64,000 nucleotides of DNA from Rikenellaceae bacterium (GTDB taxonomy: Bacteria > Bacteroidota > Bacteroidia > Bacteroidales > Rikenellaceae): NCBI GenBank assembly GCA_017464745.1, contig JAFTYJ010000072.1, positions 3,828 through 67,827 of the forward strand. The letters run 5' to 3'. Made by a program: the position numbers and the translations under genes. Every line of letters begins with the position of its first letter. Within the stretch, counting starts at the first letter, position 1. The notes beneath the pieces were generated by a model that had not been told where the DNA came from, ran no database searches, and worked only from the letters and a program-made list of their open reading frames with translations. This document shows positions 23,253 through 27,240 of this stretch, in pieces.

Positions 23253-23260
23253 TATTTTTG
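23253..23260 (+). promoter_or_regulatory. -7 promoter motif TATTTTTG upstream of small ORF 1
   Basis: Exact TAnnTTTG, about 90 nt upstream of ATG 23351. Confidence 0.4.
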
Positions 23261-23350
23261 CACCGAAATATTCCCTCGAAAGAGCGATTGCGAATATTCC
23301 GACTGAAATAGACAACAAAAAAATATTAACAATTAAACAACACACAAGTT

Positions 23351-23467
23351 ATGAAGAAACTTACTTACACAACTCCCGAGGTCGAGGTTATCGAACTTTC
23401 GGTTGAGATGGGCTTTTCGACCAGCATTGAGAAACCTACCGAACCCGACGAAGATTTGGCACTCTAA
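23351..23467 (+). CDS. Small acidic protein, 38 aa, unrecognised family (paralog at 25228)
   Basis: ATG..TAA translates to MKKLTYTTPEVEVIELSVEMGFSTSIEKPTEPDEDLAL. It is too short for the ORF track. It shares 13/20 core identities with the second sORF, and 10 of the 13 conserved residues use different codons. It ends 38 nt upstream of a lipoprotein gene. Confidence 0.6.
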   Translation: MKKLTYTTPEVEVIELSVEMGFSTSIEKPTEPDEDLAL

Positions 23468-23505
23468 TTCAGAACCATTAATTACAGAACAAAAAATACG
23501 CAAAT

Positions 23506-24963
23506 ATGAAAAAACTGTTTACGCTTATATTGTGCGCAGCAGCCTTGGTAGGTTGCTCGTATGGCGTTGAGGAGGGTAACGACACCCCCGCAGCCAAAGG
23601 CTCGACTATCACTATCACTGCCGATGCCACCCGTATTGCCCACAACTACAACTCGGAGGATAAAACCACCTACACCACTTGGAGCAATGGTGACGCTATC
23701 CTCGTTGCAGTTTACGATGGCGATACCCAAGTTGGTACTGCAACTCTGACCAACACCGCAGCCGGCGAGTACGCAACCTTCACCGGTTCGCTTGCAGGCG
23801 TAACCTTGGAGAACAAGGACTACACCATCGAGGCTATCTACCCTGCTGATGTAACCGCTTCGGCTTATGAGAAAGGTAAAATCACCATTGCTGCCGACGC
23901 TGCACAACACGTGATGATTGCCAAACAACAAACCGTTACCGCCAAGGACAACTCGATTAACCTGGCTGTTCAATTTATGCCTATGGTTTCGCGTCTGCAC
24001 GTAACTGTTGCCGACACCGAGAGTACTGCCGCAGGTTTTGGCATTATTGCAAATACTGCTGTTTTCGCAAAGACCGCTACTATCGACTTTGCAACTGGCA
24101 ACGTTACCGGTAGCGACCCCGTAAATATGGTTGTTGCAGATGAAACAAGCAATGATTTCTATGTTTACTTTATACCCTTCTCGACTGCCGCCACTTGGGA
24201 GACTTACGTATATGACGCAAATAAGTTGTTCCTTGGTGCTCGTACCGTTAGTTTGGGAAATGGTATGACTCGTAACAAAACCTACAACTTGAAGTTCAAC
24301 AACGATACTAATGACATTCTCGCAAGTGGCAAAGTAAGCCTCAGTGATTTGTTTAATGGTGATTCTGCACCTGACGTATCTGGTTTCAAGAATGGTATCG
24401 CTGGCTTAAGCCGTGGAGTACGCCTTGCCGTACAAGGCGAAGTTGTTGGTGTTAATATCTATTTCTACGAGAACAATACGGTCTATCATTTGGATGCTTC
24501 AACGAATCGTTCTGATGGCGGCAATGGTAAATACAACCAAGCAAGTATTTTCTTCCCTATTGACAAGGTTGTAGGAGCCGCTCCTGAAGGAGCAACTAAA
24601 CTCCGTGTATATTTTGACGCAACCAATGTATGGACCTACAATGGTGCAAGCGCTAATCTGTATGTAGAATACGGTACCTATATTGGTGGTACAAGTAACT
24701 GGGAAACTGATGGAACTGAAACACAAAATACACCCGCTATTGGTACAGTGGCTAACGGAAGTAATGGTTTGACGCTCAACAATACCAACCAAATAACTGG
24801 TGACGGAGATGATGCATTCAAAGATATGACTTGGACACACGAATCTCAATATGTTGACATTCCCGTATCGAGCCTTGGTAGTGCACCCCAAGTAGGTTTC
24901 TCGATTTACGGACAAGCCGCTCGTGTTGCTCTGCGCAACGTATCGTTCACGTGGGTTAAGTAA
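23506..24963 (+). CDS. Surface lipoprotein: fimbrillin-like N-terminal half plus unknown low-GC beta-rich C-terminal domain
   Basis: Lipobox LCAAALVGCSYG. N-terminal pattern TWSNGDAILVAV...ATFTGSL...AIYPA is typical of fimbrillin-like (Mfa-like) lipoproteins. Codon usage is strongly biased (GTT/GCT/ACC). Confidence 0.75.
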   Translation: MKKLFTLILCAAALVGCSYGVEEGNDTPAAKGSTITITADATRIAHNYNSEDKTTYTTWSNGDAILVAVYDGDTQVGTATLTNTAAGEYATFTGSLAGVTLENKDYTIEAIYPADVTASAYEKGKITIAADAAQHVMIAKQQTVTAKDNSINLAVQFMPMVSRLHVTVADTESTAAGFGIIANTAVFAKTATIDFATGNVTGSDPVNMVVADETSNDFYVYFIPFSTAATWETYVYDANKLFLGARTVSLGNGMTRNKTYNLKFNNDTNDILASGKVSLSDLFNGDSAPDVSGFKNGIAGLSRGVRLAVQGEVVGVNIYFYENNTVYHLDASTNRSDGGNGKYNQASIFFPIDKVVGAAPEGATKLRVYFDATNVWTYNGASANLYVEYGTYIGGTSNWETDGTETQNTPAIGTVANGSNGLTLNNTNQITGDGDDAFKDMTWTHESQYVDIPVSSLGSAPQVGFSIYGQAARVALRNVSFTWVK

Positions 24964-24986
24964 CACCTATTAATAAATAACATAAA

Positions 24987-25016
24987 AATCTGCTCGGTCG
25001 CGAGGCCGAGCAGATT
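24987..25016 (+). terminator. Hairpin, probable terminator or attenuator after lipoprotein A
   Basis: aatctgctcgg / ccgagcagatt forms an 11-bp stem with an 8-nt loop. Only a short T-run (ttt) follows. Confidence 0.5.
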
Positions 25017-25227
25017 TCTATGTAAAAACCAACCAACAAAAAAATAAGACCTGTACATTGAACATCGCAGGGATGCGACAACAGTGGTAAGTACGAAATT
25101 AAGGCATTGTCGGACAACACATCGAAGAGAGAGATGGTGAGTGCACAGAGCGCTCACACAAGTGAGAGCAACGACAAAACACAACGACAAAAACTTGATT
25201 AATATACACTTAAAAAACTAAAACGAC

Positions 25228-25380
25228 GTGAAACATCTGAAACTTTACACCCAACCAACGTGCGAGGTGATTACGCTTGACGTAGAACGAGGTTTCTCCG
25301 AATCGGGAGGACTCACAACAGGTAGCGGTATCGAAAGCGGAGAGGTGGACGAAGAACTCCAACTCGGCGGCTGGAACTAA
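25228..25380 (+). CDS. Small acidic protein, 50 aa, paralog of 23351..23467
   Basis: GTG start is the first start codon after the in-frame TAA at 25219. Translation: MKHLKLYTQPTCEVITLDVERGFSESGGLTTGSGIESGEVDEELQLGGWN. It ends 54 nt upstream of the next lipoprotein gene. Confidence 0.5.
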   Translation: MKHLKLYTQPTCEVITLDVERGFSESGGLTTGSGIESGEVDEELQLGGWN

Positions 25381-25434
25381 CACGCACGACAACCAAAGAA
25401 TGTAAAGCAACAATTTGAAAACGTATCGGATATT

Positions 25435-27240
25435 ATGAATTTCAATGTACAACTCAAAGCGTTGGCCGTAGCGGCGTGCGCATTGCTCGTAGCCTGCAAC
25501 AGCCTCGAAGTAGAAATGCCCAATCTCCCCGACAACAACTCAACCGTGGAGAGCAGCGAACCTATCTCGTTCTCGGCAGAGAAAGCAGTCACTCGCACAA
25601 CATTCGGCGAGGTTGCCGACAATGTTGTACCCATCTATTGGGCCAACGGCGACCACATCACACTCTACTGCGCTGAGGCAAGCAACACCCAAACCGAGGA
25701 CATCGAACTCACAGGGTGCGAAAACAATGAATCTGCGCACGAAGCAACCACAACAACTATGGCGTGGAGCAGCGCTTCGCAACACAACTTCTATGCGGCT
25801 TATCCCGCAACAACTATCTCGGCCGCCAAAACTATCAACTTCACTATGCCCTCGATACAAACCACATCTGGCTCGGCGGCTCCCGATATGAAGTTGGCCA
25901 AAATGGTGGCTGCACACGAGAAAGTAAGCAACACCGACCGCAAGGTCAACTTGCCCTTCACTCCCGCATTCTCGGTGCTGGACATCACTTTCACCGCATC
26001 GGAGAGTGTGACCATCAGCCGTATCGTGGTAAGTTCGGCCGACGGAACTCCCGTGGCAGGCGACTACACCGCATCGTTCAACGGCTCGAAATGGACATTC
26101 AACACAACCACCGACGCAACCAAACGTTCGTCGCTTATGGCAATTCAAATCAACGGCACGGCGGGTATCACCCTCGCGGCAGGCGCTACCGCGCGTTTCT
26201 ATGCCTTCCTGCTGCCCGTGGAGTACGCAGGTCTGCGTGTTGATTTGCTCACCCCCGACGGCAAGGTTGTAGGTCGCAGCACCCAAAACGTAACCTTTGG
26301 CGCGGCCAAACGTTATGGTATCAACCTCGGCACACTGCCCGCATCGTCGGCCTGGAAATCTACCTACGGCACCTGGATGAAATACATCCCCGACAACGTG
26401 CTTGTCAGCGACCTCTCAATCCCCGGCACCCACGACGCCGCAACATCGAGTGTAAGTGGATTTCTTAGTAGCAAAGCAAAGTGCCAATCGCTTACCATTG
26501 CAAACCAACTCCCCATCGGCGTACGTTTCTTTGACTTGCGCCCCGCAGGTGACTTCAACCTCTATCACAGCACCTACTCAACAGGTGTATCGTGGGCTGG
26601 TGCAATGAGCGCTATGTTCTCATATATGAACTCTTATCCCACCGAGGGCTGTATTACCATTATTCGAAACGAATCAGAGAAAAGTTCGTGGGATGATAGT
26701 AAAGTAGCACCCTATCTGCAAGAGAATGGACAAGGCCGCTTGATTGATTTCAAAAAAAATCTGACCGTAGGCGAGTTGCGTGGCAAAATCCTTATTCTGT
26801 CGCGTGACACATACGACAATGGCCCTATTGGTGGTTTTGTTGATAATTGGGACGATAATGCAAGTGATAAAACCGACGCATCATTCTACAAAGACAAAGG
26901 TTCCGAAATAAAAGAAACACTTTGGTTGCAGGATAATTACAGCGACGCATCAAATGCTAGCAACAAAGCAACCATTGTAAATAATATGGTGACCAAATGT
27001 AAATCCAAACCCATTAATACTTGGATGATCAACCACGCATCCTTCGCAGGTTCTCTACTCTCTAGTCCTGAAAGTAATGCTAAGACCATTAACCCCAGTG
27101 TTGTTTCTCATATCAACAACAACCCCGGAAATGTAGGTATTATTCCTATGGACTACGCAGGTAATAGTGGGGCAAGTGGCGACCAACTTGTCAATGCCGT
27201 AATCAACCAAAACGTTCGTTACGCGCAAGGCATCAAATAA
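25435..27240 (+). CDS. Surface lipoprotein: fimbrillin-like N-terminal half fused to a PI-PLC X-domain-like phosphodiesterase
   Basis: Lipobox LLVACNSLE. N-terminal pattern IYWANGDHITLY...FYAAYPA. The C-terminal half has LSIPGTHDAATS and GVRFFDLRP, matching the bacterial PI-PLC motifs IPGTHDS and RxFDxR. Confidence 0.75.
   Translation: MNFNVQLKALAVAACALLVACNSLEVEMPNLPDNNSTVESSEPISFSAEKAVTRTTFGEVADNVVPIYWANGDHITLYCAEASNTQTEDIELTGCENNESAHEATTTTMAWSSASQHNFYAAYPATTISAAKTINFTMPSIQTTSGSAAPDMKLAKMVAAHEKVSNTDRKVNLPFTPAFSVLDITFTASESVTISRIVVSSADGTPVAGDYTASFNGSKWTFNTTTDATKRSSLMAIQINGTAGITLAAGATARFYAFLLPVEYAGLRVDLLTPDGKVVGRSTQNVTFGAAKRYGINLGTLPASSAWKSTYGTWMKYIPDNVLVSDLSIPGTHDAATSSVSGFLSSKAKCQSLTIANQLPIGVRFFDLRPAGDFNLYHSTYSTGVSWAGAMSAMFSYMNSYPTEGCITIIRNESEKSSWDDSKVAPYLQENGQGRLIDFKKNLTVGELRGKILILSRDTYDNGPIGGFVDNWDDNASDKTDASFYKDKGSEIKETLWLQDNYSDASNASNKATIVNNMVTKCKSKPINTWMINHASFAGSLLSSPESNAKTINPSVVSHINNNPGNVGIIPMDYAGNSGASGDQLVNAVINQNVRYAQGIK

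Follow-up and report, generated by a model that had tools for sequence, protein, structure and literature searches.

Two short open reading frames (sORFs), sORF-1 and sORF-2, each precede a lipoprotein gene in a 64,000-nucleotide stretch of a Rikenellaceae bacterium genome (assembly GCA_017464745.1, contig JAFTYJ010000072.1, positions 3,828 to 67,827 of the forward strand), the whole of which is here called the window. They belong to a large family of small acidic peptides that is genetically locked to stand-alone genes for type V pilin-fold surface lipoproteins with varied cargo. Promoter, sORF, short spacer and lipoprotein gene are inherited, duplicated and allelically replaced as one block. 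What the peptide does is a more tentative matter, and the reading to which we lean makes it a strand partner of the pilin fold.

The peptide family and its coding status

Both sORFs lie where a sequence-only reading of the window had placed them and encode exactly the peptides that it gave (Table 1). Neither contains a hydrophobic segment or a lipobox, as had been claimed, and the lipoprotein starts follow after 38 nt (sORF-1) and 54 nt (sORF-2). sORF-2 begins with a GTG right after an in-frame TAA, which is the sole possible start and the one used in the NCBI call for this metagenome-assembled genome (MAG). Lipoprotein-2 is in the same reading frame as sORF-2, one TAA separating the two. The 20-residue cores share 13 identities, and at 10 of the 13 identical residues the codons differ, including a serine encoded by AGC in one core and TCG in the other. 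The description of the peptides as unannotated holds for sORF-1, which is present only in Logan/ENA gene calls (the identical protein P0002 was called on 6 metagenome contigs), but not for sORF-2, which NCBI lists as a 'hypothetical protein' (IJ014_05495) of the Rikenellaceae bacterium MAG. A six-frame motif scan revealed no third copy in the 64 kb. An independent family hidden Markov model (HMM), constructed from 61 members with the window sequences and their close relatives excluded, matched sORF-1 (E 2.1e-11) and sORF-2 (E 5.5e-7) among 1625 six-frame segments, the next E-value being 1.9; this detection of both sORFs is far beyond chance.

The family comprises 2806 representatives of 50%-identity clusters at E≤1e-3, a count obtained by scanning 1.84 billion cluster representatives exhaustively with HMMER. 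When the two window peptides served as query, a word-indexed search returned 4 proteins, and a profile to which the peptide of an orthologous locus had been added returned 133. Among the 150 matches listed, most were 33–60 aa long, and the longer ones that were checked had mis-called starts; P0276 and P0295, considered as possible fusions, were rejected as unrelated clustering artefacts. A metagenome scan with a loose pattern gave 10 short loci, and a pattern scan of a genome collection matched 175 stretches, 1 of which was confirmed against the divergent first sequence. One family locus came from viral contigs and one from plasmid records, searches of phage records gave nothing significant, and a member is present in Phocaeicola massiliensis, a cultured human gut species, whose strain TSDC17.2-1.1 has the module at about 63.3–66.9 kb of OY725995.1. 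Standard annotation overlooks most members, as these do not reach the cut-offs of gene calling.

Across 270 distinct members the core has the consensus Y-E-A-P-x-V-E-V-I-E-V-x-V-E-[QK]-G-F-A-[AT]-S, in which the Pro, two Glu, the Gly and the Phe are invariant and the Ser is present in 268 of the 270. The core is followed by a tail with a median of about 14 residues (range about 5–60 codons), composed of 22% Gly, 12% Asp, 9% Asn, 8.5% Glu and 7% Pro, with Lys and Arg together below 2%. The final residue is usually W, F, L, N or I, and an aromatic residue stands among the last four in 186 members. The median net charge of the peptides is −6 and Cys is nearly absent (0.3%). The D-E-[DE]-L-x-L ending that the two window peptides had been noted to share is not family-wide; it turned out to be a local variant of this acidic, Gly-rich tail with a hydrophobic or aromatic end. 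In modules whose lipoprotein joins a pilin fold to a phosphatidylinositol-specific phospholipase C (PI-PLC; pilin-PLC modules), the tail ends are kept (...GGWN, ...NDWN, ...DEWD and ...NEWD).

The proportion of differing synonymous sites (pS) across 23 distinct core DNA sequences was 0.83, that is, saturated, compared with 0.22 for nonsynonymous sites (pN). All or most codons are in use for each invariant core residue; for the invariant Ser, both TCN and AGY occur. Selection on a translated product, which the sequence-only reading had proposed from two copies, is thus supported by saturated synonymous sites and by independent HMM matches: homologous sORFs are numerous and show linkage to such lipoproteins, and pN/pS lies well under 1. 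Judged from this substitution pattern, the sORF family is protein-coding and not an RNA or DNA element. An RNA element was rejected, as the sORF regions had no match in Rfam and synonymous sites vary freely. The peptide family had no match in Pfam, in NCBIfam above threshold or in PADLOC, and none among PDB sequences at E≤10; no paper on it was found in the literature, by motif or by concept. Weak matches to PHROG 1782 (phrog_1782, a 46-position profile named 'recombination directionality factor') were seen for 26 of 66 members, with a best E of 0.0022 over 17 core residues.

Linkage to pilin-fold lipoprotein genes

In 24 of 24 distinct loci with downstream sequence, a lipoprotein gene comes next on the same strand, and the same pairing was observed in L029 (two modules), L035, L040, L041 and L042 (L numbers denote the individual loci compared). 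The gaps between sORF and lipoprotein gene range from 3 to 168 nt in about 30 loci, and the two genes are most likely co-transcribed. What had been described from two window copies, a peptide plus a fimbrillin-like lipoprotein, is a genuine recurring two-gene module.

The downstream open reading frames carry a signal peptide and a lipobox Cys in all 24 distinct loci. In many cases SKDD, SKEE or SNDE stands directly after the Cys, similar to the surface-export signal of Bacteroidetes. Past the Cys, these lipoproteins have a short alternating beta-strand, then [TS][RK] and then W-x-x-G-D-x-[IV]; for most of those listed, the strand with its [TS][RK] was recognized by visual inspection. When the N-terminal regions without signal peptides were compared, 19 of 25 formed a single BLASTP cluster, and some of the downstream lipoproteins reach Pfam Mfa_like_1. 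As the sequence-only reading had supposed, the C-terminal cargo differs from module to module: the window has PI-PLC, L011 and L028 have DUF4465, L024 has a BspA-type leucine-rich repeat, and others have no recognizable domain.

No other conserved neighbors were found, the remaining ones being unrelated housekeeping genes. Enzymes or exporters of the type that accompany ribosomally synthesized and post-translationally modified peptides (RiPPs) were absent within 8–10 kb in L001, L006, L008, L022, L023, L024 and L027. PLC-only proteins without the pilin fold have no sORF (L032–34). One of the DUF4465 loci, L011 (JAZNUT010000021.1), is labelled 'Candidatus Egerieisoma sp.', a genus that NCBI taxonomy puts in Clostridiaceae. 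The locus is Bacteroidales-like, with CSKDE after the lipobox, DUF4465, DUF5074 and the gene order of L027 and L028, so the organism name or its placement looks wrong.

The lipoproteins of the window

Lipoprotein-2 matches Pfam Mfa_like_1 (5.9e-16), and its AlphaFold2 (AF2) model had a mean predicted local distance difference test (pLDDT) score of 88 and a predicted TM-score (pTM) of 0.87. In Foldseek searches, its N-terminal half matched 4k4k, 3ufi, 4rdb, 3t2l, 4dgu, Mfa4 (5dhm) and Mfa3 (5nf4) with E-values from 4e-10 to 3e-5, in line with the two transthyretin-like beta-sandwich domains (NTD and CTD) of the type V pilin superfamily. Residues 43–49 form a strand in the model, which is followed by a low-confidence loop containing Arg54; an anchor strand with a protease-cleavage loop is the layout of type V pilins (PMC13655056). 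No C-terminal donor strands follow the pilin fold in these lipoproteins; a cargo domain comes next, or the protein ends (L022, L013), and the lipoproteins are therefore tip-like. Donor strands are missing from type V tip pilins, and the extreme C-terminus of the donor is where strand exchange begins (PMC13655056). Genes for stalk or anchor pilins are absent from the vicinity of these solitary lipoprotein genes. The lipoproteins are new members of the known type V pilin superfamily.

The C-terminal half of lipoprotein-2 is a bacterial PI-PLC (Foldseek E ~1e-18, target-normalised TM-score ~0.8; profile against PDB sequences 5.8e-58). This domain (residues ~300–601) is homologous to the Bacillus, Staphylococcus and Listeria enzymes, and relatives exist with and without the stalk. 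A PI-PLC on a pilin stalk could cleave host glycosylphosphatidylinositol (GPI) anchors, which would be of interest for host–microbe interaction.

Lipoprotein-1 has a pilin-like N-terminal half and a C-terminal domain without a Pfam family. The claim that the N-terminal halves of the two lipoproteins are related was borne out weakly but significantly (BLASTP 8e-5, 28% identity over 125 aa). An HMM of the N-terminal domain of the downstream lipoproteins matched lipoprotein-1 at 3.3e-43, lipoprotein-1 being among the members of that HMM; we infer its pilin fold solely from the BLASTP match to lipoprotein-2 and from this HMM that includes lipoprotein-1 itself. Residues 397–440 (24694-24825) had a weak match to OAA-family lectins (3s5v, E 0.016), and a carbohydrate-binding cargo is possible on this similarity.

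sORFs ahead of pilin-PLC lipoproteins carry a core Cys (PTCEV, PSCEI, PPCIE). In sORF-2 it is Cys12 (25261-25263), shared with the sORFs that precede related pilin-PLC lipoproteins in L001 (PSCEI), L029 (PPCIE) and L040 (SCPVAC). Lipoprotein-2 has a conserved, apparently unpaired Cys79 (25669-25671) at the end of the W-x-x-G-D-x-I-x-L-Y-C strand, present in 17 of 20 close homologs. A disulfide between Cys12 and Cys79, if true, would imply that the peptide is exported. The co-variation of the two cysteines is ambiguous and the cases are few: the peptide paired with the Ser79 homolog in L040 has two Cys, and the Ser79 homolog in L038 has no sORF.

Inheritance and variation of the module

The sequence-only reading had regarded the two-gene unit as duplicated in the manner of a module. 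L029, in which the lipoprotein is 38% identical, has the same tandem module pair, its second sORF being uncalled; this is consistent with duplication of the whole unit, in line with that view. Divergent sORFs are also kept in L035, a 29%-identical relative, and in L040.

Comparison of one pair of same-species strains, the window and L001, revealed a hypervariable island that covers mature lipoprotein-1, sORF-2 and most of lipoprotein-2 (Table 1). The flanks of the island were 98.2% (15348-23592) and 99.4% (27176-31306) identical to L001 by blastn. Inside it, only 25432-26446, the pilin-like half of lipoprotein-2, aligned with L001, at 86.8%; the L001 counterpart of the island is 8262-12006. 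The lipoprotein-1 proteins of the two strains were 32% identical. At the sORF-1 locus of four near-identical strains, the 5ʹ untranslated region (UTR) and the core were conserved, and conservation stopped abruptly after the core. The tail and the spacer were replaced, giving three different allelic tails in the four strains; the signal peptide that follows was conserved again, and then similarity was lost. The island has the appearance of allelic replacement, or of balancing selection acting on surface lipoproteins, and the sORF tails fall within the variable block.

Two unlinked loci of one assembly, L022 and L023 (GCA_045655585.1; both 9900-10340), encode the same peptide, their 126 nt differing at 4 synonymous positions. 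Their lipoproteins are about 92% identical over residues 1–62 and about 40% identical beyond. The near-identical head comprises the 5ʹ UTR, the sORF, the spacer, the signal peptide and the anchor strand up to residue 62, a pattern that suggests gene conversion or cassette-like exchange at this conserved part.

Possible function of the peptide

Strand exchange is the biology of the pilin fold, the members paired with the sORFs have no donor strands, and we favor a trans-acting strand partner in view of this and of the observations below. We consider it possible, though short of probable, that the peptide acts in trans and in stoichiometric amounts, as a beta-strand partner for the pilin fold of its own lipoprotein. 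In this mechanism, the core V-E-V-I-E-V-x-V-E-Q-G-F, with alternating hydrophobic residues and Glu, would take an extended shape and dock onto the pilin fold by beta-sheet augmentation, thereby substituting for a strand that tip-like pilins cannot supply themselves. The strand replaced would be either the lipidated N-terminal anchor strand, cut at the conserved Arg/Lys loop, or the lacking C-terminal donor strands. A further contact, specific to the module, would come from the flexible acidic tail and its hydrophobic or aromatic C-terminus; the processed lipoprotein would be capped and stabilized, and possibly released from its lipid anchor.

Several observations fit such a partner. In the AF2 model of sORF-2, residues 1–20 had pLDDT values of 79–88 and no secondary structure was assigned. 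This confident core without secondary structure may be read from the model as an isolated extended strand, a segment that would bind as an added strand. Drawn as a strand, the core has I-V-V-F on one face and V-V followed by Glu residues on the other. The core is near-invariant in most modules and has diverged alongside the pilin-PLC subfamily (sORF-2 of the window, L001, L029, L035 and L040). Such divergence, even within one genome, points to a partner inside the module and not to universal machinery such as the ribosome tunnel. The sORF tails and the mature lipoproteins are both replaced between strains whose flanks are 98–99% identical, an allelic co-variation. The downstream lipoproteins resemble those of type V pili (FimA/Mfa) in their pilin fold, with a candidate N-terminal anchor strand and a loop with a putative Arg/Lys cleavage site, and resemble type V tip pilins in lacking C-terminal donor strands. 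The peptide core resembles an inserted strand in that it is alternately hydrophobic and predicted to be extended. The peptide also tends to end in a hydrophobic or aromatic residue; Mfa1 cannot do without the final one or two residues of the donor (PMC13655056).

A number of points weigh against a strand partner, and the weakest step is the route of a signal-less peptide to the cell surface. No signal peptide, transmembrane segment, double-glycine motif or recognizable export leader was found in the peptide, and no in-frame upstream extension could supply an export signal. A cytoplasmic peptide should accordingly never meet a Sec-exported surface lipoprotein, and the shared compartment that trans donor-strand complementation demands was not found. 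Known donor strands are covalent C-terminal extensions of an exported pilin, whereas the candidate here is a separate signal-less product of 40 residues; unlike in type V pili, the lipoprotein genes are solitary, the peptide is very acidic, and no similarity to pilin sequences was detected in it. The peptide HMM had no significant similarity to any segment of the lipoproteins, and the idea that the peptide is a copy of a lipoprotein part was rejected for this reason. Five to six Glu are unusual in a strand meant for a hydrophobic groove. The identical peptide in L022 and L023, with lipoprotein bodies about 40% identical, argues against a tail that reads the protein body. One pilin-PLC homolog has no sORF (L038/39), which indicates that the peptide is not indispensable for the pilin fold.

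A more specific form of the strand-partner idea takes the peptide as a free-standing, separately encoded surrogate strand that would reach the surface by a signal-independent route and replace the anchor strand after the Arg/Lys cut, capping the groove and releasing or stabilizing the cargo, here PI-PLC. We regard this form as unlikely.

The lack of any export signal and the strongly acidic character of the peptide would also suit a cytoplasmic escort or sorting cofactor whose target would be the new pre-lipoprotein or the shared machinery of export or sorting. Such a cofactor might keep fast-folding pilin domains export-competent or mark the lipoprotein for surface sorting, and its conserved core would bind either that machinery or the N-terminal head that is conserved in the lipoprotein; to our knowledge, the phylum Bacteroidetes has no SecB. 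The tight gene spacing is compatible with 1:1 co-expression, the identical peptide of L022 and L023 accompanies exactly the conserved head of otherwise divergent lipoproteins, and the signal peptide is conserved alongside the core between the window and L001. G-F-A-A-S with acidic residues weakly resembles a lipobox with an acidic export signal, for example GFVACSKDD, though the HMM matches were non-significant. Class I chaperones of type III secretion are likewise small, acidic, signal-less, module-specific and encoded beside secreted or surface cargo, but they are folded dimers of ~130 residues for a dedicated apparatus, whereas the peptide has ~40 residues and is predicted to be unfolded, and its cargo uses the Sec/lipoprotein pathway. 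We know of no precedent for a dedicated 40-residue export escort of Sec lipoproteins, which counts against an escort, and a partner in universal machinery should forbid the divergence of the core within one genome that separates sORF-1 from sORF-2. An escort is, on balance, doubtful. About as doubtful is a cis-regulatory upstream open reading frame (uORF), whose translation, through arrest or through ribosome destabilization by acidic stretches, would control translation of the lipoprotein or survival of its transcript, the peptide itself being functionless. The lipoprotein gene invariably follows the sORF, the first cistron, on the same strand after a short gap; the leader is A/T-rich with a recurrent element ahead of the start; the peptide is very rich in Asp and Glu; and translational coupling could matter, since Bacteroidetes are generally held to use Shine-Dalgarno pairing little. 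The arrest-peptide pairs SecM-secA, MifM-yidC2 and MgtL-mgtA also have a short conserved open reading frame just upstream of, and co-transcribed with, the gene of an exported protein, and the acidic sORF product is like ribosome-destabilizing nascent chains. The distance from the core end to the lipoprotein start, however, varies from ~50 to >200 nt, which is an ill fit to a ribosome-footprint or RNA-switch geometry, and the intergenic spacer is not conserved, even between strains. Neither fixed spacing nor conserved RNA structure nor an Rfam element was found, and the conserved part is N-terminal instead of beside the stall or stop site. The tail is also constrained in composition and C-terminus, as Lys and Arg are nearly absent and the aromatic or hydrophobic end is conserved within a subfamily; the core diverges module-specifically although the ribosome is identical; and the family is far larger and more paralog-variable than known arrest peptides.

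A RiPP-like precursor, that is, an N-terminal leader for an unlinked maturase or exporter of the RiPP recognition element (RRE) type with a hypervariable C-terminal core peptide, the mature product working on or together with the neighboring lipoprotein, would remove the export difficulty that burdens the strand partner. Precursor families of the prochlorosin type have a conserved leader, a hypervariable C-terminal part and dispersed paralogs, all of which are seen here. Lasso peptide leaders carry a Y-x-x-P-x-L motif, and Y-x-x-P-x-V in the 20-residue N-terminal element has its Tyr, Pro and aliphatic residue at the same spacing. The sub-threshold NCBIfam matches were only to RiPP precursors (lasso_PadeA_fam for 5 of 66 members, lasso_cyano for 2 and the StsA sactipeptide for 1), the best for lasso_PadeA_fam having E 0.068 and aligning residues 6–19 with profile positions 1–14 at 11.9 bits against a cut-off of 27. 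All these scores are far under the cut-offs (best 11.9–13.6 bits against 27–42; E 0.05–0.14). The ±10 kb around the sORF, in those loci for which long flanks were covered, contained neither a lasso cyclase or peptidase nor a radical-SAM enzyme, an ATP-grasp enzyme or a peptidase-ABC transporter. Asp or Glu occurs at positions 7–9 from the Gly of G-F in only 187 of 270 members (69%), compared with ~49% expected by composition, there is no Thr at −2, and Cys is almost absent. The tail is low-complexity Gly/Asp/Glu/Asn, and RiPP precursors are not characterized by the strict pairing with a lipoprotein gene that every examined locus shows. Membership among lasso peptide precursors was rejected, as the scores, the ring-forming rules and the lack of leader peptidase (B) and lasso cyclase (C) genes within 8–10 kb all spoke against it, and a RiPP-like precursor of any kind is in our view very unlikely. 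An explanation other than a strand partner, an escort, a uORF or a RiPP has a chance that is also small, if marginally better. Among these readings we return to the trans-acting strand partner as our tentative choice.

Flanking elements of the modules

The sequence TATTTTTG, upstream of sORF-1, matches TAnnTTTG, the Bacteroidetes −7 promoter consensus, and a TAnnTTTG-like motif is located at the same offset in the orthologous loci L001, L002, L003 and L005. The hairpin between the modules is likely a terminator that divides them, and the one after lipoprotein-2 is likely a terminator common to lipoprotein-2 and the convergent gene. The 200 nt from the first hairpin to sORF-2 (25024-25227) are purine-rich, with no TAnnTTTG seen by eye, and have no DNA similarity to the same position in L001. 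An A/T-rich element near ATAAC(A)TTTAAAC was observed 11–21 nt before the sORF starts in about 15 of 21 distinct loci from different lineages; examples are window positions 23325-23340 (TATTAACAATTAAACA) and L012, L013, L019, L021, L022 and L027. It could be a module-specific promoter or translation-initiation element, or the usual A-rich Bacteroidetes leader.

Table 1. Coordinates of the two modules and their flanking elements in the window
Feature	Position	Strand	Description
Putative −7 promoter element	23253..23260	+	TATTTTTG; match to TAnnTTTG, 98 nt upstream of sORF-1
sORF-1	23351..23467	+	38-aa acidic peptide, ATG start; MKKLTYTTPEVEVIELSVEMGFSTSIEKPTEPDEDLAL
sORF-1 conserved core	23366..23425	+	20 codons; YTTPEVEVIELSVEMGFSTS; from family logo, codon analysis and DNA conservation among strains
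sORF-1 hypervariable acidic tail	23426..23464	+	IEKPTEPDEDLAL; from strain alleles and family tail statistics
Lipoprotein-1	23506..24963	+	485 aa; lipobox LVGC (Cys17), candidate anchor strand TITITADATR, motif W-S-N-G-D-A-I
Hypervariable island relative to L001	23593..27175		Mature lipoprotein-1, sORF-2 and most of lipoprotein-2
Hairpin, likely terminator	24980..25023		G+C-rich, 18-pair stem, directly 3ʹ of lipoprotein-1
sORF-2	25228..25380	+	50-aa acidic peptide, GTG start; MKHLKLYTQPTCEVITLDVERGFSESGGLTTGSGIESGEVDEELQLGGWN; divergent family member
sORF-2 core	25246..25305	+	YTQPTCEVITLDVERGFSES; contains Cys
Lipoprotein-2	25435..27240	+	601 aa; lipobox LVAC (Cys21); two-domain type V pilin fold to ~residue 300; C-terminal PI-PLC
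Hairpin, likely terminator	27243..27272		Directly 3ʹ of lipoprotein-2

Significance of the module

We rate the peptide family and the module of sORF and pilin-fold lipoprotein gene as new at the level of gene family and gene architecture, as donor strands, RiPP precursors, arrest peptides and secretion chaperones each fail at least one defining feature. The module marks fast-evolving loci, as seen in one strain comparison, and the member in Phocaeicola massiliensis makes bench testing feasible. The surrogate-strand form of the strand-partner reading, if true, would amount to a 'split pilin', a new way to turn a lipid-anchored surface protein soluble, and would mean that Bacteroidales have a peptide export pathway still to be discovered. 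Animal guts are dominated by these bacteria, whose surface lipoproteins serve in adhesion, in the capture of nutrients and in contact with the host. Thousands of solitary 'fimbrillin family' lipoproteins are annotated. That many such lipoproteins have a mini-protein encoded ahead of them, and that its core equals ribosomal proteins in conservation, points to an unrecognized step in their biogenesis, release or control.

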